From: Moniliella sp. 'wahieum'
Taxonomy: Eukaryota
Reading direction: 5' to 3'
DNA length: 64,000 bases
Assembly (NCBI GenBank): GCA_003971905.1
Contig: RSEE01000051.1
Location: forward strand, 1 to 64,000
In this document: positions 1 through 60,411 of the stretch, piece after piece
Layout of the letters: the number at the start of each line of letters is the position of its first letter
Numbering within the stretch: the stretch's first letter is position 1
Position numbers and translations under genes: made by a program
Notes under the pieces: generated by a model
What the model was told of the DNA's origin: nothing
Databases searched by the model: none
Seen by the model: only the letters and a program-made list of their open reading frames with translations

Positions 1-1278
1 TTTCTCTCAAATCCTCCGCAAAAGAAACAGTGCCACCCAAGCCCAATGAATGATCCGCAGGTGAGGAAATAATAGCGGATGTAGGGCGGGGTCCCGGCAA
101 GTGCACCGCTATGTCAAGGGACTGAGAAGGCGGAAGGATAGTGTTGTGTTGTAAAGGGCGAGACTGGAACCATCCGGCTTGAGAGATGACGTTGAGAGGG
201 TCGTGCGGAAAGACAGAAAGTGTGGTGGTATTTCTGGTGGTGGTAGTACTTACTCCCTCGTCCGGCTTGACGGATTGGTTGGAGTTCTGAGCGTCCGTCA
301 TGTTAGCTGTGGTTGCTGCTTCTCCCCCTTCTGAAGCGACGGTTCCCAGTGCATAAGGGAGGCTTAGTCCCTCCAGCGCAGTTGGCGCAAACGCATTTCG
401 CTTGGGCCAAACGAGACGAATGCCTAATGAGGTGTCTAGATCATTAAGACTCTTTTGACCCCATAGATCACAGAAAAGAAAATAATGTGGTTAGCTTCTC
501 CGCCTCGCCCGAAAGGTCTGGCCAAGAGCAGAAACGCACACTGTACGCTACTATTACGTCCTCAAGTGAGTCGAACGTAACGTCGATGGCTGCAGCCAGA
601 GTATTCAAACCATGAACTGGAGGTTGTTCCCCCGCCGAGCGAAAGGCAAAGGAGGTGGTAAACAAGGAGAGAATGGCTCGGACCAGCTGAGGCAAAGGTC
701 AGTCACCTCTTCGGTTTGCGGATTGCAGAGAAGGATGCGTACACTCTGCTCCCAAGGCTCCTCCTCCTCCGGCCCAGGGGTTGTCCAAGCGAGGGCCTTT
801 TGACGTCTACCGAGCCAGAGGATGGCATCAAGTTGATTCACATTTTGAGTGAATTCGAAGCGCATGGTGCGATCAAGGGGTTGAGAGATAGGTGAGGCTT
901 GCTGCGATTGAGGACGATTTTGTGTGAATGTTGGAGCAGTGCCTGGGCCTGGGCTATGGTCTGTGCGCACGGGTTAGGGGGGGGGGGGGGTAAGCGTTCA
1001 ATGCAGCCCCACGTTTTCTCTTGGAACTGGCAGGGAAAGAAGGTACGCACATCTACTTCTACGTCGGCCTGGCGCCCGGCCGGGTTGTCGTGGCTGGCCG
1101 ACTTTGGCAGAGACAAGATGCGGATGGCGCGGACGGGGGCCCAGGGGGCGAGCGCAGCGGCGAGGGCGCTCTCGGTAGGCGGGCTGGCGAGGCCAGCGAC
1201 CCAGATGGCGGGCCCGCGCTTGTGTCCGCCGTGGGGGCGGGGTGTGTCGGGTGTGGTCCCCGCGGGGTGGGTGGCCAT
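1..1278 (-). CDS. Protein with N-terminal RRM-like domain; frameshifted, probably continues beyond window start
   Basis: ATG at 1278. IWVAGL...ESALAAALAPWAPVRAIRIL...ADVEVD follows an RRM beta-alpha-beta-beta pattern. A GTACCT/GTGCGT-type donor near 1050 and CTAAC...CAG near 960-977 suggest an intron. Coding-like frames continue towards position 1. Confidence 0.4.
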
Positions 1279-1909
1279 GGCGCGGTGGTGGTGGGGATGG
1301 GGATGGGGAGGGGGTGGGGGTGGTCGACGTGAGAGGGGGCTGGGCGCACGTAGGAGCAGTTAGTTATAGCGAGTGGCCAGCTAGCGCTTTGGCGCTGTGG
1401 GTTGCATTTAGCTTTGTGGCCCTCGGCCAGGCAGTGAGGACTAGATGACTACTAAGAGACAAATATGGCTGGGTCCGCGGGTAGCTTTCGCTTGCCGTCC
1501 TATTCGCACCTGATTGCATTGCACTTGCATGCATTGCATTCTCTTCCTTCCACCCACAGCATCTGAGTCAGACAGGACGGGACAGGACTGCACTGAGCGT
1601 AGTGGACGTTTGTGTGTTGTATGAACGCGCCATGCCCACCATCACATCCGATCGCACGCACATCGCAGCGACAAAGACAAGCATGGAAGGGCCAGGGACA
1701 AAGACAAGGAGGAGGACAGGGAGGAGGACAGGGAGGGAGGGGGCAGGCGAGGAAAGTAAGGACGATAAAGTACATAAGGTAGTGCAGCAGAAAGGGGAGA
1801 AGGTTAAAGGGGGCGGCAGAATGGGAGGAGCTCGGGGGGGGGGGGGGTCAGGGTAATCGTCAAAGGAAAGCAAAGGAAAGCGAAGAATGGTGGGGAGAAG
1901 GAGATGGTG

Positions 1910-2895
1910 CTAATCAGTGTGCGGTCGATGTGGCGCGGTACGGTGTCGCAGTGGGCTCGGCTCCAACGGGTGGATGGGGGTGAGGCTCATCTGCGCTCCC
2001 AGCCTCGGCGTTGAGGGCACCGAGACATCCGATTCGTCCATGTCAAACTCATCAAAACCCAGCGGGCCATGAACGCCCACATCCATCGAGCCTGGCTCTT
2101 GCTCATCCAATGGGCTTGGATCCACCTCGGCCAGCTCTTCGACATGCATCATATCATCCTGCTCGGCTCCGGCTCGCTTTCGTTGGGAGGGTGGAGGGGC
2201 GAGTGGCCGCAGCGCAGGGAGGGAGTCGGTGGCACTGGTTGCACTGGCCTTGCGGGCCCGGTGGTTGGCCAGAAGCGTCGATGCATCGTACGTGCCTGGG
2301 GTCAGCAGCGGAGCCTTTTCGCCAGGCTGGATGCGAAGCGGCGATGCAGAGGACGGGTGCTGGTACACATGCGCGTGGGGGCCAGGCCAGGCGACAAAGT
2401 CGCCCTCCTTGGCCAGCGTGGGGGCCATCTTGGGACAAGAACGGGGGACGAACGTGAACGCGGACTTTGCGCAGGCCTGGGCGGGGGAGAAGGAGTCAGG
2501 AAGGAGAACGAGGGGAGGGGCAGGAGAGGCAGGAGAGGCGAGGCGAGGCGAGACGTACCCAGGGTGCGGAAAACGGCATAGCTGGCCACGTCGACGAGGA
2601 TGAGGCCGACAAGCGGGAGGAGGATGAGGATGGAGGCGATGCGGCAGAGGGTGGCAACGAAGGCGAGCAGGGCGGGAGGGGGCGGGTGGAAGACAAAGCC
2701 CCAGGCCATCTGCCTGCGTGGGCGGCGTACGCGCAGGCGGCTGCGCTCGGCATGGATGGGGGTGTGGAGGAGGGCGAGGGCGAGGGCGAGGGAGAGGGTG
2801 GCGGCGGCGACGCTGATGATGGCGGCGGGGTGGATGCGTGGCGGGCGGGTGCGGAGGGCGCCGCCGCGGGGGGGGGGGGGGCGGGGGGGCGCCAT
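1910..2895 (-). CDS. Hypothetical membrane protein with disordered C-terminus, one intron
   Basis: Hydrophobic segments IISVAAATLSLALALALL and LCRIASILILLPLVGLILVDVASYAVFRTLG. GTACGT donor at ~2558. Downstream ORF ends at 1910. Confidence 0.45.
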
Positions 2896-3458
2896 GGGGA
2901 GGAGGTGTTATAGGCGGGGTAGGTGGGGTGGGCCAGGGGGTACGGGTGGGCGCAGACGGCACGGCCGCCGAGGCACTAGGCCGCGTGCGGGCCCCAGTGA
3001 ACATTGCAGATTCAAGTTCAATGTTCAACGTTCAATCTGCCGTGGTGGACCGAGGCCAACCTGGGCACAGGGCCAGTGCGCGGCCACATCACAGCATTGC
3101 TGTGCCGCGTGCCGTGGGAGCGAATGCGGCCGGCTGAAAGTTTGCGCCGCAAGCGCCTGTCGTTTCGGCAGGGCAGGCACAAACGGTGGTGCAGTGGGCA
3201 CATCTGGCGAAAGAGCATCTGCCTCGCTGGCCGCCGCCAAACGCACCACCAGCGGCGGCTCAATCCATCCCATCTGTCCCATCCTCCGTTCGGCACGCAT
3301 CGCTCCCAGCCACATGGCCAGCGCCGGTGTCCATGCGGCCGGTGGGGCCTGCTAGAGACGAGAAGGCAGAGCATTTATTGTTCAGCAGATGCAGTAGAGC
3401 GTCACGAGGGAGAGATCGGATGAGCGCGATGAGCACATGGGCTGCAGAACGCTGTGCT

Positions 3459-3501
3459 TGAACTTCTGTAGCATTGAACTTCTGTTAGCATTGAACTTCT
3501 G
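3459..3501. repeat. Short tandem repeat (TTGAACTTCTG(T)TAGCA, about 2.6 copies)
   Basis: Read directly: ttgaacttctgtagca ttgaacttctgttagca ttgaacttctg. Confidence 0.85.
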
Positions 3502-3873
3502 GCTTCAAGCCGGCCAGACCCAAGAGCAAGAAAGAGGCAAGCCAGGAAACCCAAGGGGGAGGTGAGGCCTACCTGAGGAAAGGAACAGTGGAGAGACAAT
3601 GCCAATAACGTCGTGGAGAAGCTGTGGAAAAAACCCATTGGAAAAAATCCATTCGTGGCAGGCCAGTCCGTTTAGCTCCCACAAAGCTGTACTAATAAAG
3701 CCATACCAACCACAGTCTTGGGCTTCTCGCCACTACCTTGGGACTGTCCGATTGCCTACGTCAAGGCCCACGCGACGCCATGCCATGCCCGGCCAGGCTC
3801 GACCTCGGAGGTAAACGAGACTGGATGAGCATATACAGAAGATAGTACAGGGCCAGATAGGAAACAGCAGCCA

Positions 3874-4686
3874 TCACGACGCCGACAGCGCCGGCAAGCC
3901 GGTCACTGTCTCATCCGGATCCTGCATCCCCGCCGACGTCTGGGCCCAGCGCGACACCGACCCACTTCCACTCGCCGTGGACGATCCGCTGAGCTCGGTG
4001 CGGTGGCCGAACCGGTTGGGGATCGCCGGACCGCCGCCATGGACGAGTGGGCGGGGTTTGGCAGGCAGCCCTGCCAGGCCACCCAGGCTTCCGAGAGATA
4101 CTGTGGGCTGTGGCCGCGCTCGTAGCCTCCGGACGAGGTGACTGACGAAATGGAGGTCGAGTGCCCATGCACGCCGCCGCATGGGGCGGCAGGCACGTTG
4201 GGCTCGGGGATCGAGGCCAAGGAGCTCACTGAGCTGGCGCCGCGGGCGTGCGAGCCCGCGATCCGGCTCCGCGGCCGGTTCTGCACCGAGGCGAGGATGG
4301 AGCCGGCATTGGCTCCGTCGTACGGGCGCACCTGGGCCTTCTTTCCCGGTGCGTTCTTCAGACCGGGTGCGGGGGTGGAGAAGACGGGTCAGATAGGCGC
4401 GCTTGGCTGTGAGAGCAGGGTCAGCAGGGAGCTCTAGATAGACACGACAGACATACGTACCCGTAGCAGGGTCGGCAAAGACGACATAGACGCAGTTGTC
4501 ATCGACCCATTTGATCTTGAACCCGCCGCGGTCGTCCTCCCAGGGACGAAAGATGGCCTGAATGTCGCGGGTCTTGAGGTCGGCATGAAAGTCGCGCAGC
4601 TCGAGGATGCGTGTGAGGAGAGGCGAGCTGGCAAAGGCGACGGAGCCGGTGGATGAGGACGGGACGGTGGCGGTGGCGAGAGTCAT
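3874..4686 (-). CDS. Thc1/R3HCC1-type RRM-like domain protein, one intron
   Basis: ILELRDFHADLKTRDIQAIFRPWEDDRGGFKIKWVDDNCVYVVFADPAT, intron GTACGT...GCTGAC...ACAG, then AKRAYL. The KIKWVDD motif is typical of this RRM family. Ser-rich tail. Confidence 0.65.
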   Translation of the reverse strand: MTLATATVPSSSTGSVAFASSPLLTRILELRDFHADLKTRDIQAIFRPWEDDRGGFKIKWVDDNCVYVVFADPATGTYVCRVYLELPADPALTAKRAYLTRLLHPRTRSEERTGKEGPGAPVRRSQCRLHPRLGAEPAAEPDRGLARPRRQLSELLGLDPRAQRACRPMRRRAWALDLHFVSHLVRRLRARPQPTVSLGSLGGLAGLPAKPRPLVHGGGPAIPNRFGHRTELSGSSTASGSGSVSRWAQTSAGMQDPDETVTGLPALSAS

Positions 4687-6009
4687 GGGAACAGCAATCG
4701 ACGGAAGCGAAGGAGGTGAGGGGCACGGGGAGGGGGGTGGTATCGAGGACAGAGGAAAGGACTGGCCGGGCGGAGGGCAGGCAGAGGGCGTCCAGCGCAG
4801 GAAACGAACGGAGCGAGCGGGACGGAGCAGGGGGGGCGGCGAGGCGGAGGCGGAGGAGGGAGGGGAGGACGGGGAGGGAGGGAGGGAGGAGGAGGGCGTG
4901 GAGGGGGAGGAGATGGTGGTGGCAAATCCACTCCGCTCGGGCCCGCCGGCTGAGGACCGACGGGGTGCTCGCCGCGGGCCGCAGTGCTTGCGCGACCGCC
5001 GGGGAGCGAGTCTAGTCAGCAGGCTGGCCCACACTGCCGCCACGCGCCGGTTCGGCCCAGCACAGCGCCTGTCGGGCCTCGGCGACTCCACGTGTGCATC
5101 CCGAAGGATGATGCAGCAGGCGTGGTGCGTGACGGTCGATGGTTGGAAGCAGGGTGTGTGACGTGCATGTGACATGTGACATCGCACGCCTGACGCCTGG
5201 TGCGCGACGGTGGACACGTGAAACGTGAAACTCTCGTGCAACCCTACCGCCCGCCTGTTCTGACAAGTAATGTACTCCACCAATCCCATCCGAGTCTCAT
5301 ATCAAGCCAAGCGATAGCTTCCTGTGCAACGACACCAGCCCGCTAGTAGAGAAGATGCCAGTCGAGCCTGCGCCTCCATACGCCACCCGTCCCGTTGCCA
5401 GGCTGCTCACATCAGGGCCTGACAGCCATCCTTAGGGTTAGATCACCGTGGCTCTGAGGCCTGGCACGAGGAGAAGAGGCGGAGCACGCTGTTGCCATGA
5501 TCTTATTGTCTTCATCACAGCCAGCGGCGCCCCTTGGTCTGGGCGTGAGCCGCTGTACTCGGGAAGGAAAACGTATCCGCATCCTCCTTCTCATCCCTCC
5601 ATTTTACATCACTCAAGATTAAGAGTAAGATTATGGCCGAAGAACACATTCGCGCCATGATCGAGCACTGCAATAAGGGGGTTCCGAGGAGGAAATTGTG
5701 TGTGCCCGTAGCCAACAGTGACAACTAAGAACATATGGTTGAACCCGCACAGCGCCACGTATTCTACTGTGCCATTTTGGACTCTCGACTGGAAGCAGGA
5801 CTTGGAACTTGGCCATGACGACCGGCAGACAGTTGGCTGAGTGATTGCGAGTACCACGCCAGCAACCTTGGTGCCACAACCCGCCGCAACACCGTGCAAA
5901 TCTGGTCCGGTTGGGTCAAGCGATCCAACGCTTTTAGAGCGCGGCACCACATCGCACGGTAAGTGGAAGCATGTCCGGGACGTATGATTAACAGAGGCCT
6001 GTGCAGGTG

Positions 6010-6703
6010 TCAGGGATACAGGGAAGCTTGGGGCTGGGTGGGCAGCTCAGTGGCGTATGCTACTGCCACCGTTTCGTCCCAAGGCAGGCCACGGCAGTCG
6101 GCCCGCAAAGGCGATGTTGGGGGTTTCCCAGAGCGCTGGGGCAGGACAGTCGGAGGGGATGTCAGTATCCACAACGGCCCAAAGAGCGAGGTCGAGTTGA
6201 GCGTCATACTTTTCGCGGCAGCAGGGCCATGGAGAAAGATGTGACATGGGCGGTGGGAGTGATGGTAGCGACGGCATATTCAGTAGGATGGAACCAGGCG
6301 CGGACAGCCCACTTGTCGGCCGCGTGTGACAATTGCTGAGTTCTGTGGTCGCGGCAGACAGTGCGTATGGCAGATCGAACGTCCGAGAAGAGAGATGGAG
6401 AAGCAGGTTCAGGCTCGGGTTCGGGTTCGGGCTCGGGTTCGCCTGTTCGGGCGTGGGAGCGGGCGTTCAGGCTTCGGCCACCAAGGTGTGCAGCCGGGGA
6501 AGTAGGGCCTGTATAGTGTCGGCGGCATTGGATTGCATGTCGGGACCGGCGGCGGGGGAAGTGATCACGGGATCACGGGAGGGGGTGATCCTTGAGGTAC
6601 CGTGGTGGGAGGGCCGTGGAGTCAACGAAGAGTCGTTGCCGTCGGAGATGTCGTCCATTTCGGGGCCGGCCGCGTTGCGTTCAAAGGCGCGGCGGTTGGA
6701 CAT
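6010..6703 (-). CDS. Hypothetical protein with Glu-Pro repeat; frameshifted, probable intron
   Basis: MSNRRAFERNAAGPEMDD..., then an (EP)n stretch encoded by GAACCCGA repeats at ~6405-6440. GTATGA...ACTGAC...CAG intron at ~6135-6210. No recognisable family. Confidence 0.3.
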
Positions 6704-7917
6704 GGGGTGGGAGGGGAGTGAGGTAGGGCGGAGGGAAATGTCGAACAAGATGGGGGGGTAGTTGGGCTAAAGCCAGGAAGGCTGAGTGGGATGATCAAAC
6801 TTAACAAGAGAGATGGAGAATGGGGGAAAGGATGAGAATCATATTCATCGAGTGGAAAGAGGGCGAGGTATAGTGTCTCGGAGAAGAAGAGAACATGCAA
6901 GCTAAGTCATACGAAGAAGGAGAGGGAAGCATAGTCAAAGAGGGAAGTCAGGGTCTAGAACAAATCAGGGGCCAGTCAACCTGGTGGCTAGAAGTGTGAC
7001 CACAGGTGGGTCTGATCCCGACAAAGATGTACCCAAAAGCGTCCATCCATCCGCTCCCTTCTGCCCTAGCTCGCCGTCCACGGAGAAGATGGTCAACGGT
7101 CCCTCAGTCCCACCACCGTATCCGAGGGGATCGGTACACACAGTAGATGTGCCTCTTGCCTGCCAACGCAGTTACGATCATGAGCATGTGCTTGCGTATA
7201 CCCGCGCCGCCTCTGTAGGCATAACTGTTGGCAAAACCGTTCTGTGGGATGTAATGGGCGGAATTGTTGTTCACCCATCCCACCACAGGGAAGAACGGCA
7301 AGGTTCCCAGATCGTGCCTCACTTTCTGGTCGGAGTCGGTGGGGCTAAGTACTCGGCCACCTCTCCGAGGGGGCCCAAGGGTGGACCTGGAACGGTTGTG
7401 GTCAGCAGCAGCTGGGCGCGTTGTGTTGGGGGTGGCGCGCAGCCCCACGGGGATTGAAATGTTGAGTGGGGATTGGGATTGCTATTTACCCGCGCGGCTG
7501 GCTGGCTGAGCATCTCAGCCCATTTTTGGGCGCCCAGGGGCGGGCAGGAGAGAGCCGGGTGATGGGTGGGTGACGGGTGCGTCTGGGCCAGAAGTGGAGC
7601 GATGTGCTTGACTGGTGTTCGCCTCAAGGCGAGAGGAGGAGGCCATCGCAGGCACGACCGTCGGTGCCCCAGTGTGGCGCCCCGGGCGATGCTCCCGGCT
7701 CTGTCCGACTGGCCGTCTGGTGCGTCCAATGCATTATGACCCCACTTGGCAAATTATAATACACCTGCTCTCAGTCTGCCGCCCCGCTGTGCTGTCAGTC
7801 CCTGGGGAGGTTATGCGTGCTCTCAGAGGCAGTGGCTGTGGGCGCTACCACAGACGGCGTCTTGTCCACCTGCTTTTCTTCCCTCCTTCCGTCGCCTCTT
7901 CTCCCCCCCATCCCACC

Positions 7918-10077
7918 ATGCGCCCCCCAGTGCTGCTGCGTCGTTGCCTCGGACTCTGCGCAGCTGCCGTCGCGTCGGCCGCCGCTGGCGCAAATACCCC
8001 TCCGCACCCCCTCGCGCCTGCTCACCACCAGCTCCCTCCAACGCAGCACCGCCTCCCACCACCACCAACACCCCACCATCAGCACCACAACCATCCATCC
8101 TCCTTCCGCCTCACCCATACACAGGCCGGCATCATCCTGGCCGCCGCCGCCTACCTCGCCTCCACATCCTCCCCGCCCGAAGAGGCAGCCATGGAACTAT
8201 CCTGGGACGAGGTGAGCCGGGTGTTGCTTCCGTCGGGCCTGGTGCACCGCATCGAGGTCGTCGGTGGCACCCGCGCCCACATCCACCTCAACCCCTATGC
8301 CGACCTGCTGTCCAAGGGCATCTCCCTCTCGGCCCGGCCGCTCACACCAAGCATTTCCTCGTCAATGTTCCGTCGGCCGAATGGGTGGAGGCGCATCTGG
8401 ACACGGCGCTTGCTGCCCTCCCATCGGAGCAGAGGGACGTATTTCCTCCCGTCCGGTTTTCCGATTCGTACGGATGGGACATGGCCTGGGCCTTGGCACC
8501 CACCCTGGGCTTCTGTGCATTCCTTCTCTTCCTCGATGGTGCGCGACACAGCCTCACATCCCCGGGGGGACTTTCGTGGCGTAATGCAGGTCAATCCCTC
8601 TGGGGCCAAACCAAGTCGCTTCTCGGTTCCGGTGCTCGAGCTGCCGCTCCATCCGCCCCACGGTCCAGCATCACCCTGGCCTCTGTCGCGGGCTTGGGTC
8701 CCGCCAAGGCCGAGGTGGAAGAGCTGGTTTCGTTTCTGTCGGCGCCCCATGCGCATCGGGCGCGCCAACTGGGCGCACGGCTTCCGCGGGGAGCTCTGCT
8801 GACCGGTCCGCCCGGGATGGGCAAAACGTTTTTAGCGCGCGCGATTGCGGGTGAAGCGCGCGTTCCGCTCTATGCCTGTTCGGGGTCCGAGTTTAGTGAC
8901 AACGTATGTGGGGGTTGGGGCGGCGCGGGTGCGGGAACTTTGAGCAGGCGCGTTCCAATGCGCCCAGCTTGATCTTGTGGATGAGATTGATGCGTTGGCC
9001 CGCGCACGCGGCGCCGGGGCCGACGGTATGGGCGGTGGGTGCGACGAGCGGGGAAGCGACGCTGAACGAGTTGCTGGTTCAACTCGATGGGTTCTCCACC
9101 CAGGAAAATGTCTTGGTCTTGGCTGCGACCAACCGGCCGGATGTGCTGGACGAGGCGGGTGAAGCGGGCCGGTCGCTTTGACCGTCACATTGCGATGCCC
9201 GCGCCAGACGAAGAGGGCCGACGAGCCATCTTCTCGGTCCACCTCGCTCCGTTGCAGTTGGACCCAGCCCTGGACCGTACCAAGCTGGCCGCGCTGCTTG
9301 CTGCCGCCACGCCAGATTGGTCAGGGGCAGCGATCGCGTCAGTGTGCAACGATGCGGCGCTGCTTGCCGCACGACAGGGCGCCGAGTGGGTGAGCCAAGC
9401 GCATTTGGACCTTGCGGTGGCACGGGTACAAAAGGGGCCTCTTGGTCCTCGGCCGGCTCTGTTGAAGGAAGAGCAGCAGACGGCCCGCGTGCATACTGCC
9501 GCTCGCATTGCTGCGCGATGGTACCTGCCTCTGTCGCCGGGCGTGGCGCGTGCGGGAGTGGGCATCGGCGCCAGCTCGGCCCCAGGATGGATCGTGGCTC
9601 CGCCTACGTCCGAGTTGGCCTCGCAAGCCGAGCTGGAGCAGCGCCTCGCCTGCCTTTTAGCCGGCCGGGCTGGGGAGATGCTTTTCTTGCCGCACTCACC
9701 TCGGCGAGCCAGGACGAACTGGCGGAAGCGACACAGTTGGCACGAGCGATGGTGGTCCGATTTGGGATGAGCAGCCTAGGTCCCTTGGCCCCTCCTCTGC
9801 CACGGACCAAACCCCGGTCGATTCCCGCGCCACCCAAGCCCTCGTGGACGAGGCGGTAGAAAAAGCCCTGGCCAAGGCGTTGAGCCACGCGCGATGGGTG
9901 TGGACCAGCACCGGGCCCAAGTCCACCGCTTGGCCCAACAGCTGGAGCATCATCCTACTCTTGAGGCAGCAGATTGAGGCTTGCCTCGGTCCGCGTCCTG
10001 TCCCCCCCTCGCTGGTTCCGGCCACGTTGCCTAGTACCCAGCGCACCTCTCCCACAGCCTCGCCGGCGCTCGTTTGA
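7918..10077 (+). CDS. AFG3/paraplegin-type (m-AAA, FtsH family) protein with intact AAA motifs and degenerate M41 protease site; frameshifted
   Basis: Presequence-like N-terminus, TM1, [23 protein letters not shown] domain, TM2 ([14 protein letters not shown]). Walker A GPPGMGKT, pore loop YVGVG, Walker [29 protein letters not shown]...RAGRFDR. M41-like LLAGRAGE and [11 protein letters not shown]. Confidence 0.9.
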
Positions 10078-18059: not shown

Positions 18060-18152
18060 GGCGAGATAGCGAAGTGGTCTAACGCGCTGTGTTAAGGTGG
18101 CCTACCTCGACCGCAGTCCTCCGGGGCGTGGGTTCGAATCCCACTCTCGTCA
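18060..18152 (+). tRNA. tRNA-Leu(AAG) with 13-nt intron
   Basis: Acceptor GGCGAGA/TCTCGTC, D-stem GCG/CGC, anticodon stem CTGTG/CGCAG with TT-AAG-G, variable arm, T-arm GTGGG-TTCGAAT-CCCAC, followed by TTTTT. Confidence 0.92.
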
Positions 18153-29643: not shown

Positions 29644-31756
29644 CTAGGACACGGACGCCACCACCTCGGACGCCTTCTCCAGGGCGGAGATCATCTTGAG
29701 CACCTCTTGTCGACGCAGCTTGACTTGGTCCGACTCCTTCAACAGTTCCTCCACCGCGCCCGACGCATACAGTTCCTGCAGCAGCACCGCCTGCATGTTC
29801 TTCTTGGCGTTGTTGACCAGTTCCAGCACGATCGCCTTGGGCACCATGTCGGCCACCGTCTTCTGCACCACCTTAAAGTACGACGTGACCAACAACTTGA
29901 CTGTCTCGAGCTCGATTTGTTCCCGGCTGGTCAGTGTGCCGGACGCCTTGAGGCTCGGCGGCGGCGCGTCGAGCGCAGAAGCCTTTTGCTTGGCCGTCTG
30001 GGACCGGGTGAAGAAACTGCCAAAGAAGCCTCCTTGGTTCTGGTTCTGGTCCTTGTCCGCCTCGTGCGCATGCTGCCGCACTTTTGGCCTCCTTGCTGTT
30101 GGCCGGCGGAGCCGGCGTGGTGGGGTTGTAGCGTTCATTGACAATGGCCAACGCTTGTTGTCCACTAATAAGTCCGGGTGGGCCACGTTGAGGTACGCCG
30201 CTTCGGCCGAGATCAGGTCGCTGACCAGCTTGGTGGGTGGGCGCCATACACTTTTTGAAAAAGACAATGACGACATTATTGAACCGCTCGCGCAGTTGCG
30301 GGAAGCGGCGGAACGCCTGGTTTTTCGCCAACAGTTGCGACAGGATCCGAACCAGCTCTTCGAACACCAACTGGGCGCATTTCAAACTCGGTTCTTCCAG
30401 TCGCTTGATCTGCTGCTTTACAATCACCTCAAACGCCGTCGTGCCACAAAAAGCGAAGGCGTGGAACCGGCCGAGTTGTACAGGATGGTGCGAATGTCCG
30501 TGTCCTTGACCGAGTCAAACGGGTCGAGGGCATTGACACCATTGTTGAACAGTTCGTGGAAGACAAACGAGATGCGTGCACCGCCAGCCAGCTCGGTGAC
30601 CGACAAGTCGTTCGAATTGCCATCAATCACCGTGCGGAACTCGTTGGTAAACTCGGTAATGATGGTCAGAATCACATTGGACGGGTTTTGCTCCCCCAAA
30701 GCGCCGCCCAACGACTGCAGCTCGCCTTGGAATTTGACCAGTTGCTGGCCAATTTTGGTCTTAATGTCGGGCAGGGTGGAGCGGATGTGGTGCATGAGAA
30801 TGGTGGTCAAACGACGGGCAAGGTAGGGAGTTCCGCAATACTTGGCCTTGGGCCGGTAGGACGGGTGCGACATGAAGAACTCCTTCTGCCTCCAACGCCG
30901 CCTTGACCTTCTTGCGCGAGTCAATGTCGCGTTGGCCGCGATTGACCACGGGGACGTAGCCGAGGCGGAGATGGATGACCTTGCCGGCCAGAATGTCGAC
31001 CACGTCGGTGCCAGCGTCCATCAAGTCCACCTTGGTCAGCACGCCGATCGTGCGCAACCCCTCTGGGTCCACCTCACGGGCCAGCTTGAGTCCGTCCGAG
31101 TTGGCCAGATCCGTGTTGGCCGCCGTGACAGCGAGGATGACGGCGTTGGGGCGGGAAATGTACTTGTACACCATATCGCGGATCAGGCGCTCAATGTCCT
31201 TGGGCTGGTCCCCGACCGGCACCTTGGTCAGGCCGGGAAGATCAACAAGGGTGAGGGTGAGAACATGGGGCGAGTAAATGCGCAGGTTGATGGGGCGGGG
31301 CGAGATGGCGACGCCCTTGCCTGTCTCGAGTTCGGTCTGGCGGACAATCTCTTGGCGGATCTTGTTAAAGTCGTAGAACTTTTCACCGCGCAGGTCCAAA
31401 AACTCGCCCCACTCGTCGGGGCTCAACTCGGGATCGGCGTCGGCGCCAAAGACCTCTTCGCGGGTCTTGCCCGACGCAGGCTGGTTGATGAGCTGGAGCA
31501 CGAGCGGGCGGCGGGTAACAATGCCCGTGCCACGCGGGAGAAAGTCGCGGCCAACAATGTTCTCGAGCACACTCGACTTGCCGGACGACTGGCTGCCGAG
31601 GACGGTGATCTGGGGCAGATCAATGGGGTTCTGGATGCCAACGCTGGTGAAGGCGTCCTGGAGCTTGTTGACAAGCTCTGGTGGGGGGGGGGGGTTAGTG
31701 GGCGAAGGCAGGGAGGGCAGGAGAGACGTACGGATGAGCGACTGGTCCATGCTCAT
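29644..31756 (-). CDS. VPS1: Dynamin-like GTPase Vps1; one 5' intron, frameshifts
   Basis: MSMDQSLI, intron, [11 protein letters not shown]-loop [57 protein letters not shown]...DMVPKAI. Confidence 0.95.
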
Positions 31757-32240
31757 GCTGGGCAACTACAACAACCGCGGGGGCGATGGCGACGGCGATG
31801 GCGATGGCGGTGGCGATGGTGCTGGTGCTGGTGCTGGTGCTGGCGATGGCGGCGGAATGGCAGCGTGGCGACGGCTGGATGGCGGCCAGACAGACTGGCG
31901 ACGCGCCCAGCGAGCGAGCTGCGATTGCTGCGACGCACCCAAGCGGCATCCACCGCCACACGGCCCGCCTGCCCCGCTCCAGCGCAGTGTCGCGCCGCTT
32001 ACTTACGTCACCACGTCACCTGCGTCACACAGAGCCACGTCACCGCTGCGGTCGCCGGGGGGGGTCACCTGACCGGTGGCCTGTGTGGCACTGTGACATG
32101 TGACAGGTAGTGCCGCATGCTTAGCTCATAACCATCTCATCTGGGTCACGTGGTGCACCTTGTGTTGGTCTGCCAGCAACCGAGGCCTAACCGACGCTAT
32201 TAGAGCGGACAATACACACACATACTTGACGCCAGACGCG

Positions 32241-36330: not shown

Positions 36331-37337
36331 TCAAGCGGCCTCGTCAGCTGTCGGCTCGGCGGCGGGCGCGGCGGCGGGCGCGGCGGCGGCGGACTCGGAA
36401 GCGGGCACAGCGGCGGCGGACTCGGCAGCCGGCTCGGCGGCGGGGCGGAGGACTCGGAAGCGGGCGCAGCGACGGCGGCGGACTCGGAAACGGGCGCAGC
36501 GGCGGCGGACTCGGCAGCCGGCTCGGCAGTCGGTTCCGGATTGGGCTCGGCCTCCTGCATGTCCGATGTCCAGAGCGCCAGGTTATCATGCAGCAGCTGC
36601 ATGATCAGTGTCGAGTCCCTGTAGGACTCTTCCGACAAGGTGTCCAGCTCGGCAGTCGCATCGTCAAACGCCAGCTTGGCCAGGTCGCAAGCGCGATCGG
36701 GCGAGTTGAGGATCTCATAGTAGAACACGGAGAAGTTGAGCGCCAGACGAGGCGGATGGGGTGGGAGGGAGCCAGCTCGGTGGCAGCCACGTCGGAAGCG
36801 GCCTTGTATGCCTCGAGAGACTTGTCCGTGCTCTCCTGCTGCGTGGAACTCATGGAAAACTCGGCAAGTAGCGGAAGTAGTCGCCCTTCATCTTGTAGTA
36901 GAACACCTTGCCCTCTCCCGTCGTAGCCGAGGGCAAGAGGTGCTTGTCGAGCACGGCGAGAATGCCATCGCAAATCTTGGCCAGCTCCGCCTCAATCTTC
37001 TCGCGGTAGGTCCTGGCGATGCCAAACTGGGCCGTGTTGCCCTCGCTCTCCTCCTTGTGTTCGATGAGGAGGAGACGATGCGCCAGGAAGCACGGCGGGC
37101 ACCAATCACGTTCTGTACGCGACCGAGAGCAGGTTGCGCTCCTCCACGGTCAGTTCCTGGCCAGCGGAAGGACGAGGTTGATGTGCTCAACCATCTCTGT
37201 GGCAAGCGGGTCAGGTTGGCAGGACGAGGCGAGGCGGGGCGCAGATACCGCAACAGAAACGGAACCACGCACCGTCGTACCGCTCAGCCTGCTCGGCAAG
37301 CTTGGCAAGGTAGACGTTGTCCTCAGGGGCGAGACAT
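36331..37337 (-). CDS. 14-3-3 protein, divergent, with Ala/Glu/Ser/Pro repeat tail; one intron
   Basis: [13 protein letters not shown], intron, [77 protein letters not shown]. Confidence 0.95.
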
Positions 37338-37359
37338 GGCAGGCAAAGGGGAGGATGGT

Positions 37360-37476
37360 GGGGATGGGGATGGGGATGGGGATGGGGATGGGGATGGGGA
37401 TGGGGATGGGGATGGGGATGGGATGGGGATGGGGATGGGGATGGGGATGGGGATGGGGATGGGATGGGGATGGGAT
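37360..37476. repeat. (GGGGAT)n hexanucleotide array, about 19 units
   Basis: Read directly; starts about 22 nt upstream of the 14-3-3 ATG. Confidence 0.97.
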
Positions 37477-38311
37477 GAGGAGGTTGACGTTGAGGAGGAG
37501 GTTGAGGATGAGGGCCAAGGCCACGGCCACGGCCAAGGCCCCTGAGGGGTGGTGCATTGAGCCAGGCTGGCGTGGATTGTCCGATCCCATCGGCGATGGA
37601 CGGTCAATGACCGGTGGATCGATGATCGATGATCGATAATCCAGCGTATCACGCTGACGCCCCGCACATCCACACTGCGCTCCTGCCCTTGCGCTCGCCT
37701 GAGTGTGTTGGGCCTGCGGCTGCGCCTGCCCCCCGCCCAGGGCCAGTGTGATGCGCAACCCTACTGCTACCTGGGTGCTCCAATAGCGAGCGCATGCTAG
37801 CTCCAACCACCGGAGGGCCGCGTGACGTGGGCCTGTCATGTGACCTCTCCCCCGTCGCGATGGACGGTGGAAGAGCACGCGAGAGCAGCAGCAGCCCCCC
37901 ACCGGCCGACTCGCCTCTTCTGGCGCTGGTGGCACGTGTCGAGCAGCGAGCGTGGTGCTCGATACGCCGACCAAGGAAGCCTTGGCGGACTGGATGTCCC
38001 TTAGAGGGTTGCTGGCGTGACATGCGACATCACATGCATCACAGGCGATGCCAAGGGCGTGGACTCGGCCGTTGAAATTTCACAATCCTCGTCGTGCCCT
38101 CCAGCATTGAAATTTCACCTCCTCAGCGAGGCCGTGGCACGGAGGCAGTCGTCGGGGACACTGGCTGGGTGCGGGACTGGATTTCTAATTGGGGGCCGGG
38201 GCGCTTGGGCCCAGCCCCGCTGGTCGGCGAGCTGCCACCACTACCACTACCACCGCTGCTGCGTGCGTGCTCGTAGGTGGTCTCGACGTGCTGGTGCTCC
38301 CGCTGCCCTCC

Positions 38312-47636: not shown

Positions 47637-47718
47637 CGAACGACGCAGGGGTCGAACCTGCAACCTCCTGATTACAATCCAATCGTAGTCAGACGCGCTA
47701 CCATTGCGCCAGCCGTCC
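47637..47718 (-). tRNA. tRNA-Arg(ACG) with 10-nt intron
   Basis: Reverse complement: GGACGGC/GTCGTTC acceptor, GCGC/GCGC D-stem, TCTGA-CT-ACG-A[intron]A-TCAGG, T-arm GCAGG-TTCGACC-CCTGC, T6 run about 17 nt downstream. Confidence 0.95.
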
Positions 47719-56970: not shown

Positions 56971-59900
56971 GAACTCGGGGGCGAAATGCGAATCATCCGG
57001 GCATTATATGACAGTGGGGCATTCCCATCCATTTGGAAAGACAAATCCGTCTTCACATCCATGACCCCTTGCGACGACGATAGAGGTTGCTAACGGGACA
57101 CATGTAAAGGCGGAAGGACGAGGCACGGCCACAATCCGTATCCGATGCTTAGGAGGACACCAAATGGAGATAAAACTCCCCAACAGCCTATACATGCCCC
57201 GTTTCAGCCGAAATCTCGTCAGTGTAGCACACCTGTCGAACACCGGAATCGCATCATACTTCGCCCCACACCAGAAGGGTATCTGGCTTGGTAACCCAGG
57301 ATCCACCCTACGAAAAGTAACCGGCAGTGACTATCAATTCACGATCTTACACAACCCGCGAACGCCACCCACACCCCTGCGGGCCATGGCGACCAAACCG
57401 ATCAAACCGGCCGACCCACCCTCAACCCCAAACTCCCTCGCAGCATCCCTGGCCCTGGACCACGTCTCTAAAGCCCACAAACGCTGGAACCACGCAGCCA
57501 TCGACCTCCTCCCCTGGCTTACACGATCGGAAACCGCAGGCCTCCGCGTCACAGCCAAGCATATCTCCCTCTGTCGTTCAGAGTGGGATTGCCCAACATG
57601 CGCGGTGGCACTAGCGACAGCATCGCCCCATCCGAGCCGGGACCGCCTCCGATCCAAAAGACCTTTCGAGGTCCTCCACGTCGACGTAGTAGACCTCCCC
57701 CGGGTAACCGGCATGGGGCACGGATACGCCCTCGTCGCCGTTGATGACTTCACGCGGTACGTCTTCACCACAGCGATCCCGACAAAGGGCGCTGCAACGA
57801 AGGAACTGCGGAACCTCATATTGCGGGAGCAACGCTACGGCCCGGACAGACTGCTGCGGACTTTGCGCACGGACAACGCCCCCGAATTGACAAGCGCACT
57901 GCAACCTTTTCTGGACGAGCAAGGCATCACGTCAGAACGGACAATCCCGGGGCAGAGTGCTAGCAACGGTGTGGCTGAGCGTGCCATCCGAACCATAACG
58001 ACTCGTGCAAGGCAGTTGCTCTTGGGTACAGGTCTTCCGACGTCGGACTGGTGGGAACACAGCCTCCACGCTGCGTGCTTCACCCAAAACCAAATGCCAC
58101 TCAAAACATCCGGGGAAGACAACAAATCGCGATTTGAGCGATACAAAGGCCACGCATACTCGTTACCGATGCAACCCTTTGGCCGCGTTGCATACCTCCA
58201 TCTGCCCGAGTCACGCCGCGAGCACAAGCTCAGCGCGCGGGCAGAGGAAGGTATGCTGGTAGGATACCACCATCAGCGCGGATCAAAGGGATGGCTCTTC
58301 GCCACATACCAACCATCCCTGGGTACCTTCACCTACCGCTGGTCGAAACCGTACAAATGGGGCAACGCCATCTACCCCCATCTCCACCCCGACCACTTCC
58401 CACCCGACATCTCCAAATCACCTCAAATTAAAATCGACAGTGAAAAAGACGCTAACCCTACTCCGCCAGCCGCGGCAGCACCCATGCCCCGAACCGCCGC
58501 CACACCCCAGACACCCGCTCCCACCACCACCCCCCCTCCGCGCCGCTACCCCCTCCGCCAGCGCACCACCCGCACCTCCCTCGACCTGCACACACTCCCA
58601 ATCGCTGACGACCCCACCGACACGACCTACCATGCTCGTGCTGCAGCCGCCACGCCCCACTGCGCCGCACCAGAGATCGGCATCGCCCGCCCCCTACCTG
58701 ACACATCCGCCCCCCCGTTTGCCGACACAGTTCAACCTCCCGAATACGCCGCCATGACTGCTCTCAGCGCACCCATCCACCCGGACACGGTTCAGCTCAC
58801 CAAGGATGGCGTACCCCTCGCTCCCAAGACGCTCAAGGGTCTCGAGACTCACCCCTCCTTTGCCATGGTCAAGCAGGCTATGGCCGACGAGGTGGCCACA
58901 CTCGCGCGATACGGCACCTACGAGGCTACGTACCCACCACCGGGTGCACAAATCCTCATAGGACTATGGCGCATCACCACAAAGACGGACGCCGAGGGCC
59001 GGTTCCTGCGCCACCGCGCGCGCTTTGTCGCGGGCGGACACCAACAATCGGCCGAGACTTGGGGCCAGACGTTCGCACCATCGGTGCGCACACCTGCCAT
59101 CCTGACCCTCGTCGTGCTGGCCGAGAAGTATAAGTTTGGCCTCTTCTCGGCGGACGTCAATGCAGCGTACCTGAACGCCCCCCTCGAAGAAGCAGTCTAC
59201 ATCCGCCACCCCCCTACTTCCCCGAAGCGGGTGGTCGCGTGTGGCGTCTCAAGAAGAGTCTATACGGGCTACATCAGAGCGGAGCAAACTGGGCACGATA
59301 CATCCGGAACCTGCTGCGTGACAAGCTCGGCTTCACGCAAAGCTTGACCGAGCCCTGCTTGTTCGTGCGCGCTGCACCACCGGGTGAGCAGATCCTCCTG
59401 GCGGTCCACACCGACGATCTGCTCCTCGCATGCAAGTCACACCAAAAGTACGAGGAGTTTATGGCCGAGATAAACACACACATTGATGTTCGTGGTAACG
59501 GTCCCCTTCACTACCACCTGGGATGCCAATACGATCGGATCGGTGGGGAGCTGTACCTGAGCCAACCAAAGTTCATCGAGGAAGTGGTGGCAAAGCACCA
59601 CATCAAAGCCCCGTGGATCCGGACTCTCCCACATCCCGTACGGATGATACCGCCCCGTGCCGACCCTGAACCCCCATCCCTCCCAGCCTTGCGCAAGGCA
59701 TATCAGGGGAAGATCGGATCGGGACTGTGGGCTGCACGAATGGGCCGGCCTGACTCCCTCTTCGCTATCACGGCCCTCAGCAGAGCCGCTGCCGACCCAT
59801 CGCAGCAGCATCATCAAGCAGTCGATGACTTCCTTCGCTACCTGTACCATACTCGAGGAAAGGGCCTGAGGTTGACCCCAACATCAGATGCACCGGCCAT

Positions 59901-60411
59901 TGCGCTGTATACAGATTCCGACTTGGCGGGAGATCCCATCCAGGCACGCTCCACATCTGGATGCCTACTGATGGTGTACGGTGTGCCGGTGTCGTGGCGA
60001 TCCATTCTTCAGCCGAAGAGCGTTACCAGTACCGCCGCCGCCGAATATACGGCAGGATATGATGGACTGGTTGACGCCAACTATGTCAAGAACATCATGA
60101 TCGAGCTTGGGGCCATCGGCGAGGGTACACCCATTCATTGGTATTGCGACAATAAGTCTGTCGTCGATCTCGCCCACAAATTTGGCAGCACCGGCAAGCT
60201 CCGAGAGCTGAAGATCCGGTACCACAATGTACGGCAACACGTGGACTCGGGCGAGGCCATACTTGTACACATCCCCGGCGAAAGGAACCCAGCGGACGTC
60301 CTCACCAAGCCTCTCGGCCGTCCCGCCCTGACAAGCCATCTTGCTCAACTCCGCGTCGAGGAGATGGATCCAGTCCACATGACTGGGCCCTCCGGTCAGC
60401 GGGGGTGTTGA
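56971..60411 (+). CDS. pol: Pol polyprotein: protease, integrase, reverse transcriptase, RNase H (indels at ~57068 and ~59220)
   Basis: PR YDSGA, IEVANG, NLVSV; IN HKRWNH...CPTC, HVD/RTDN/NGVAER; RT DVNAAYLN, KSLYGLHQS, HTDD; RNase H YTDSD, AEY, CDN, ADVLTK. Confidence 0.95.

Follow-up and report, generated by a model that had tools for sequence, protein, structure and literature searches.

The 64,000-nucleotide stretch analyzed here (the window), which comprises positions 1 to 64,000 of contig RSEE01000051.1 from Moniliella sp. 'wahieum' (assembly GCA_003971905.1), carries a forward-strand gene at 7918..10077 whose sequence identifies it as an additional, diverged paralogue of the AFG3/YTA12-type m-AAA protease of the mitochondrial inner membrane. 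As read from the translation, its product starts with a presequence-like N-terminus and continues with an intermembrane-space domain of AFG3 type that lies between two membrane segments. An AAA+ module in which every motor motif is present comes next, followed by an M41 domain in which the HEXXH zinc motif is destroyed. We lean toward the reading that the product is a non-proteolytic m-AAA-type motor in an inner-membrane hexamer, that it most likely serves there as a non-catalytic subunit mixed with active Afg3/Yta12, and that the breaks interrupting its reading frame are mostly assembly errors.

Foremost among the observations is the loss of the zinc site. The motif H-T-A-A-R (9492..9506, +; cat act gcc gct cgc) sits exactly on the HEAGH of AFG3 proteins, both in BLASTP alignments to 18 chosen FtsH-family proteins and in phmmer alignments to the PDB. 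At the aligned place the afg3 protein of Dispira (P0293) reads AYHEAGHAVAGWFLE, and the other references aligned at the motif include Branchiostoma AFG3L2 (P0320) and human AFG3L2 (6nyy, a chain carrying HQAGH). The same loss is seen in P0004, a relative with an intact 413-amino-acid reading frame from a public read-set assembly and 49% identity to the window protein. In both proteins the general-base Glu is replaced by Thr and the second His by Arg, while the first His remains. P0004 reads HTASR at this place and TTANQED at the place of the third zinc ligand. Because P0004 is an independent protein from another assembly, HTAAR cannot be a base-calling error, and the two alternative frames at 9492-9506 hold nothing resembling HEXXH.

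Zinc in m-AAA proteases is described as being coordinated by two His plus Asp (PMC12994072), and the third M41 ligand is given as an Asp about 74 residues past the motif (PMC11266112). The corresponding segment of the window protein is T-S-A-S-Q-D-E (9698..9718, +). Opposite the final Asp of AFG3 'AADDL' and of bacterial 'AQNDI', the alignment has Glu in the window protein (SQDEL) and Asp in P0004 (NQEDL). An earlier note on this DNA, made from its letters, had placed the dead motif within 9483-9530 in register with the AFG3 HEAGH, had read the changes to Thr (ACT) and Arg (CGC) as in-frame substitutions rather than indels, and had read the third-ligand segment as TSASQDE. All of these statements held when examined with the alignments, the alternative frames, and P0004.

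Lacking HEXXH, the window protein falls outside the active M41 metalloproteases, and it is predicted to be unable to cut peptide bonds. One could imagine that zinc or another metal is still held by substitute residues and that some peptidase activity persists, since the motif keeps its first His and the third-ligand segment an acidic residue. We regard this as highly improbable. M41/zincin chemistry requires HEXXH, Glu has become Thr and the second His has become Arg in both family members, and half of the conserved M41 positions are gone.

The motifs of the ATPase motor are all present on the forward strand. They include Walker A (GPPGMGKT, 8805..8828), the first pore loop (Y-V-G, which is F-V-G in AFG3; 8905..8913), Walker B (V-D-E-I-D, 8977..8991), and a region at 9122..9185 that holds sensor-1 (AATNRPD, with its Asn at 9131-9133) and the arginine fingers (RAGRFDR, 9165-9185). 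One frame change (~9152-9158) falls between sensor-1 and the arginine fingers. The motor had earlier been described as intact, which is true of its motifs but only in a conceptual read-through, and the extent of frame breakage (about 10 breaks) had been understated.

To compare the two domains, retention was scored over those alignment columns (MAFFT, faster settings) in which 31 active m-AAA-type rows show at least 90% conservation. The window protein keeps 99/119 of these positions in the AAA domain (83%) and 20/39 in M41 (51%), and P0004 keeps 60/71 (85%) and 20/42 (48%), respectively. The corresponding values are 90% and 81% for a bacterial FtsH (P0012) and 82% and 69% for a Paxillus protein (P0442). 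Between the window protein and P0004, 97 of 163 AAA positions (60%) and 80 of 175 M41 positions (46%) are identical, whereas the M41 identity of either one to active m-AAA proteins is only 26-30%. By these alignments, the M41 domain is one that has drifted from the enzyme consensus and yet is held in common by two lineages.

The drift is also visible in Pfam scores. P0004 matches Peptidase_M41 with 70.7 bits (profile positions 56-189) versus 216 bits for a Malassezia protein, and the window fragment reaches 29.1 bits, slightly below the cut-off of 29.9. The M41 fold itself is retained in a predicted structure of the orthologue P0004, which stands in for the window protein here. This AlphaFold model, made from a 50-row alignment, has a mean predicted local distance difference test score (pLDDT) of 80.4 and a predicted template modeling score (pTM) of 0.73. 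It matches AFG3L2 (6nyy) with a template modeling (TM) score of 0.65-0.66 over about 390 columns, and also matches YME1, bacterial FtsH, and chains of the Ycf2/Orf2971-FtsHi motors. The window gene thus has the AAA module motifs of the FtsH family together with a C-terminal M41 fold, the latter taken from P0004.

The conceptual coding region (7918..10077, +) runs from an ATG at 7918-7920 to a TGA at 10075-10077 in the same frame. No single frame is open between them, and stop-to-stop open reading frames (ORFs) in all three forward frames hold pieces of one FtsH-like protein. The first part (7918..8040, +) is Arg-rich and acid-free, with three R/K and no D/E among the first 40 residues, and may act as a targeting sequence. 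It is followed by a candidate first transmembrane segment at about 8125..8172 (+), which is hydrophobic in translation and aligns to a hydrophobic segment of P0371. The domain between the membrane segments (8194..8470, +) aligns to the AFG3-type intermembrane-space domain (ELSWDEV...VRFSDS) from residue 213 of P0293 onward. Pfam names the corresponding region of Malassezia P0265 FtsH_ext, and a 43-amino-acid piece of the window domain searched alone gave no Pfam match. A candidate second transmembrane segment lies at 8481..8537 (+), with a mean Kyte-Doolittle value of 1.68 over 19 residues in a hydropathy scan. When seven in-frame pieces of the gene were searched against Pfam, AAA was matched in two pieces (34.5 and 30.3 bits) and AAA_lid_3 was matched with 31.5 bits; three of the seven pieces had no match.

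Several comparisons place the gene with the m-AAA proteases. The segment 9159-9695 has human AFG3L2 (6nyy, residues 197-371) as its best match in the PDB with 108.7 bits, compared with at most 62.7 bits for bacterial FtsH. From the intermembrane-space domain onward, the read-through aligns over its full length with 35-39% identity to afg3 of Dispira and Agyrium, to YTA12 (Pichia cluster P0325), and to the m-AAA component of Malassezia sympodialis (P0265). Identity to the last of these is 39% overall and 29% in M41. As a yardstick across fungal phyla, the Malassezia and Dispira proteins share 75% identity in AAA and 58% in M41. Because it is only 39% identical to the Malassezia protein, we consider the window gene to be an extra diverged paralogue rather than an AFG3 or YTA12 orthologue.

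From about 330 FtsH-like proteins fetched, a tree of 70 rows was built with the 48 best by BLASTP, 21 chosen proteins, and the window protein. The window protein and P0004 form a clade with a Shimodaira-Hasegawa-like approximate likelihood ratio test (SH-aLRT) value of 100. This clade is nested in a group of 38 eukaryotic m-AAA rows (SH-aLRT 92), separate from the bacterial FtsH rows. Placement of long rows is unreliable, the window row is unusual in its amino-acid composition, and the tree places the pair in the m-AAA group without fixing its position there; a clade with 9 fungal/animal AFG3/YTA12 rows was not rejected by the approximately unbiased (AU) test (p = 0.213). Membership in the m-AAA subgroup is nonetheless indicated by both the tree and the two-membrane-segment layout of the N-terminus. 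The earlier note had called the gene an AFG3/m-AAA homologue with two transmembrane segments and had suggested building an FtsH tree, and its assignment agrees with the best structural match, the full-length alignment, the two hydrophobic stretches, and the tree.

A bacterial origin was considered because the top matches are multi-AAA actinobacterial proteins, but it was ruled out by the PDB comparison and the tree. Multi-AAA proteins rank high because their repeated AAA modules inflate scores. They form a set of long FtsH-like proteins of about 870-1490 amino acids (P0001, P0002, P0003, P0005-P0011, and P0241-P0249), one of which is named an Acidimicrobiales AAA family ATPase. In the four whose sequences were examined (P0001, P0002, P0003, and P0005), 2-4 tandem AAA modules are followed by one M41 domain with HEAGH or HESGH.

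By the sequence of its surroundings, the pseudoprotease gene belongs to the nuclear genome of a basidiomycete in the Ustilaginomycotina. The other genes in the window include a BET bromodomain gene, HMG-CoA synthase, Rft1, VPS1, Nup85, 14-3-3, eIF1A, and a Copia-type retroelement. Among VPS1 matches covering at least 87% of the query, the best named ones are from Ustilaginomycotina with 74-79% identity (Tilletiaria, Moesziomyces, Tilletia, Pseudozyma, Ceraceosorus, Meira, and Malassezia). The Microstroma and Jaminaea proteins are 80-81% identical over 79% of the query. Fungi have no plastid. The possibility that the gene is an ordinary FtsHi of a plastid-bearing host such as an alga was ruled out by the fungal neighbor genes and VPS1. 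No second FtsH-like locus is present within the window.

Relatives of the gene were sought in several ways. Of 8000 candidates scored in a word-based search with a C-terminal fragment, 139 proteins reached E <= 0.001 and only P0004 among them was close, and an N-terminal fragment gave 62 proteins with no orthologue among them. A HMMER search with P0004 against 1.84 billion representatives returned 42,369 matches, many of the top-ranked ones being multi-AAA proteins. None of the best 150 exceeded 44% identity, aside from proteins at 45-51% that match best over no more than roughly the first 150-175 residues, which make up the AAA part. In a metagenome scan, 491 of 546 candidates were confirmed and 80 loci were kept, with full-length matches at no more than 38% identity; higher values came from short AAA-only pieces (L059, 58%; L065, 43%; L075, 40%). 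A protein atlas search yielded only generic AAA_lid/M41 clusters with no informative taxa. The gene is therefore either lineage-restricted or unannotated elsewhere.

P0004 resembles the window protein in its HTASR motif, its kept AAA motifs, and its degenerate M41 domain. It differs in that its N-terminal half is missing (the gene call is truncated) and in having Asp rather than Glu at the third-ligand position. Because HTA[AS]R is common to both proteins, the motif loss predates the split of the two lineages, and the protease-dead state is old and was maintained.

The interrupted reading frame requires separate consideration. We used a frameshift-aware dynamic-programming alignment with four guide proteins, namely P0004, P0371, P0293 (afg3 of Dispira), and P0258 (an 'AFG3 family' protein), and with every guide the DNA shows about 10 net frame changes within 8320-9969. 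On the forward strand these lie at ~8320-8341, 8895, 8938, 8975, 9052, 9152-9158, 9684-9693, 9782-9821, 9880-9886, and 9954-9969. The corrected read-through (8194-10005) comprises 609 codons with 10 breaks and no in-frame stops. Introns were ruled out as the source of the changes, as homology runs across every break and no residues are lost. Inspection of the sequence contexts did not place the breaks clearly at long homopolymers.

The VPS1 gene of the same window (29647-31765, -) served as a control and was treated by the same alignment. It shows 5 frame changes relative to P0124, a protein 97% identical to the N-terminal VPS1 ORF of the window. In Rft1, Pfam coordinates likewise show a gapless junction between two frames. 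Because VPS1, a strongly conserved housekeeping gene in the same window, also carries 5 frame changes, most breaks in the FtsH-like gene are probably assembly errors, and the real gene is probably open. The proposal that these frameshifts are assembly indels, made in the initial reading of the DNA, is accordingly plausible.

Judged from VPS1, the coding sequence of this assembly contains about 2.5 small indels per kb, and ORF-based annotation would be badly fragmented. Two tRNA-like genes found by ARAGORN at 18060-18152 (+) and 47637-47718 (-) are of undetermined type, with two-letter 'anticodons' and malformed anticodon loops. Assembly indels may have disrupted their anticodon loops, or the genes may contain introns.

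Several observations weigh against our reading. The sequence as given has no open reading frame, and its approximately 10 breaks in 1.8 kb (5.5 per kb) are twice as dense as those of VPS1 (2.6 per kb). The branch leading to the window protein and P0004 is long (stem 1.41, tips 1.29 and 1.03), which relaxed constraint could also produce. P0004 is the only relative found in the databases searched, and none of the many named Ustilaginomycotina genomes with a VPS1 match yielded an orthologue. The earlier note had proposed checking relatives for a shared loss of the motif, which is seen in the HTASR of P0004.

These same facts could be taken to indicate a decaying pseudogene that arose by duplication of an m-AAA gene and then died, at least some frame changes being genuine. 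The density of breaks, the long branch with its narrow distribution, and an M41 domain that keeps only 51% of conserved positions all fit such a history. However, the difference in break density is not significant (conditional binomial p = 0.12), and the essential VPS1 gene carries its 5 changes against a protein that is 97% identical. An absence of in-frame stops over 609 corrected codons and an AAA retention (83%) on par with that of the intact P0004 (85%) also argue against decay. Furthermore, Tajima-type relative-rate counts with 5 outgroups assign 21-28 unique changes to the window protein versus 29-37 to P0004, which is no excess in the window copy. The presence of HTA[AS]R in both proteins, which speaks for an old and maintained state, likewise runs counter to decay. 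We therefore consider a pseudogene quite unlikely.

If the gene is functional, it is reasonable to speculate about how its product might work. The AFG3-type topology and the acid-free N-terminus hint that the protein would be located in the mitochondrial inner membrane. There it would bind and hydrolyze ATP and thread substrate by means of its Tyr pore loop, and it would form or join a hexamer through its AAA and M41 rings. A mixed hexamer with active Afg3/Yta12 seems the most likely arrangement, because a mixed ring should best accommodate a subunit without a catalytic site, and a hexamer of its own seems less likely. Perhaps the motor pulls or dislocates membrane proteins, which other proteases then cut. 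By analogy, two systems offer mechanistic precedents. Dislocation of Ccp1 by the yeast m-AAA protease needs the Walker motifs but not the zinc site, and rhomboid does the cutting (PMC12994072). In chloroplasts, FtsHi proteins are reported to be motor subunits beside FtsH12 and Ycf2 (PMC11266112, PMC9020784).

A different arrangement is a stand-alone homo-hexamer in the inner membrane that acts as an ATP-driven unfoldase, dislocase, or chaperone independently of Afg3/Yta12. The dead M41 domain, with 46% identity within the family versus 26-30% to active m-AAA proteins, suggests that it conserves a surface of its own and not one fitted to Afg3/Yta12. The complete architecture and fold of FtsH are preserved, and AFG3L2 is described as able to homo-hexamerize (PMC5835776). 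We nevertheless find this arrangement rather unlikely. As a matter of general reasoning, loss of the catalytic site is best tolerated in a mixed ring, and the known M41 pseudoproteases, the FtsHi proteins, are reported to share their hexamers with a partner that is active or FtsH-like (PMC9020784).

The window protein resembles the fungal and animal m-AAA subunits (Afg3/Yta10, Yta12, and AFG3L2) in its architecture from the intermembrane-space domain to the C-terminus, in its two membrane segments, and in having all AAA motifs. Unlike these proteins, it has HTAAR in place of HEAGH, keeps half of the conserved M41 positions (51%), and sits on a long branch. YME1 (the i-AAA protease) is also a mitochondrial FtsH-family protein with AAA and M41 domains, and the P0004 model matches its structure (6az0). 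However, the window protein has the two-segment AFG3-type N-terminus, and 6az0 ranks 24th in the fold search with 27% identity versus 30-34% for the top ten.

A further comparison is with chloroplast FtsHi1-5 of the Ycf2-FtsHi import motor. In these proteins, as in the window protein, the AAA motor is kept and HEXXH is gone, and the P0004 model matches FtsHi chains. The FtsHi proteins belong to the plastid envelope and the green lineage and have Ycf2 and FtsH12 as partners, whereas the window gene is fungal. Their motif substitutions also differ from HTAAR: the motifs of FtsHi1, 2, 4, and 5 are given as TEVGV, NEAAM, REAAV, and WAAGR, respectively (PMC11266112, PMC9020784). FtsHi3, which falls in the m-AAA group, is described as being without the C-terminal protease domain (PMC11266112, PMC9020784), a domain that the window protein keeps. 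The window protein therefore has the combination of an AAA motor and a lost zinc motif that defines FtsHi proteins but not their plastid and green-lineage setting, and by analogy it may work like an FtsHi without being a member of that group.

Loss of HEXXH is not confined to these cases. A string of the form HExxH is found in 233 of 269 FtsH-like proteins and is absent in the other 36. Among these 36, full-length m-AAA-like proteins with a degenerate motif occur in Sexangularia (P0311, QEAGK) and in the rotifer Seison nebaliae (P0383, HQSST), and further m-AAA-like examples are P0322 (NESAH), P0330 (FEAGK), P0357 (HECGK), and P0308 (HEAGR). Like the window protein, these belong to the m-AAA tree group, have the full AAA and M41 layout, and have lost HEXXH. 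Unlike the window pair, they keep 60-83% of the M41 consensus, and they lie outside the clade of the window protein and P0004. Because they fall outside this clade, the losses of HEXXH look independent, and such loss in m-AAA paralogues seems to be recurrent. To our knowledge, none of these degenerate m-AAA-like proteins has been studied.

Some other features of the window can be noted briefly. The Copia-type retroelement (57065-60411, +) has Pol_BBD, integrase, SH3_retrovirus, and RVT_2 domains, and near 59210 the reverse transcriptase passes from one frame to another. A (TGGGGA)n microsatellite with some 20-25 copies lies at 37359-37513, and a 27-30-bp tandem repeat rich in GC, at 36357-36527, overlaps an ORF with a 14-3-3 C-terminal match. 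Upstream of the pseudoprotease gene, a positive GC skew of 0.14-0.24 is sustained over 1-8000, a region in which no ORF of at least 150 amino acids matches a Pfam family.

The initial reading of the DNA had also stated that no fungal example of such a protein was known to have been described. In keeping with this, full-text searches of the open literature gave no fungal or mitochondrial M41 pseudoprotease, and a 2024 review of pseudopeptidases lists only chloroplast FtsHi1-5 under M41 (PMC11266112). The number of FtsH homologues per fungal genome is reported to have a median of two (PMC9020784). The window protein would be an FtsH-family pseudoprotease in an organelle and a lineage other than the chloroplast, reached by independent loss.

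Going further, we tentatively suggest that some Ustilaginomycotina keep a third, lineage-restricted m-AAA paralogue that was long ago made into a pseudoprotease with a working motor. It could possibly be the first mitochondrial and fungal counterpart of FtsHi, with its dead M41 domain put to a new role. That role would be the binding of substrates or partners in proteolysis-independent dislocation or in an import-type motor. Protease-dead FtsH homologues are an already established concept, and the practical value of this case is limited for now, the family comprising two sequences of which one comes from a poor assembly. If the proposal is true, however, the conversion of FtsH to a motor-only protein is not peculiar to plastids, and the degenerate m-AAA copies scattered over other organisms, an amoebozoan and a rotifer among them, would show that it recurs across eukaryotes. 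So far, pulling and proteolysis are known to have been separated only by engineered site mutants, such as those in the work on Ccp1 (PMC12994072). If the gene is maintained, it would be a natural separation-of-function variant in which the ATP-driven pulling of m-AAA is isolated from proteolysis.

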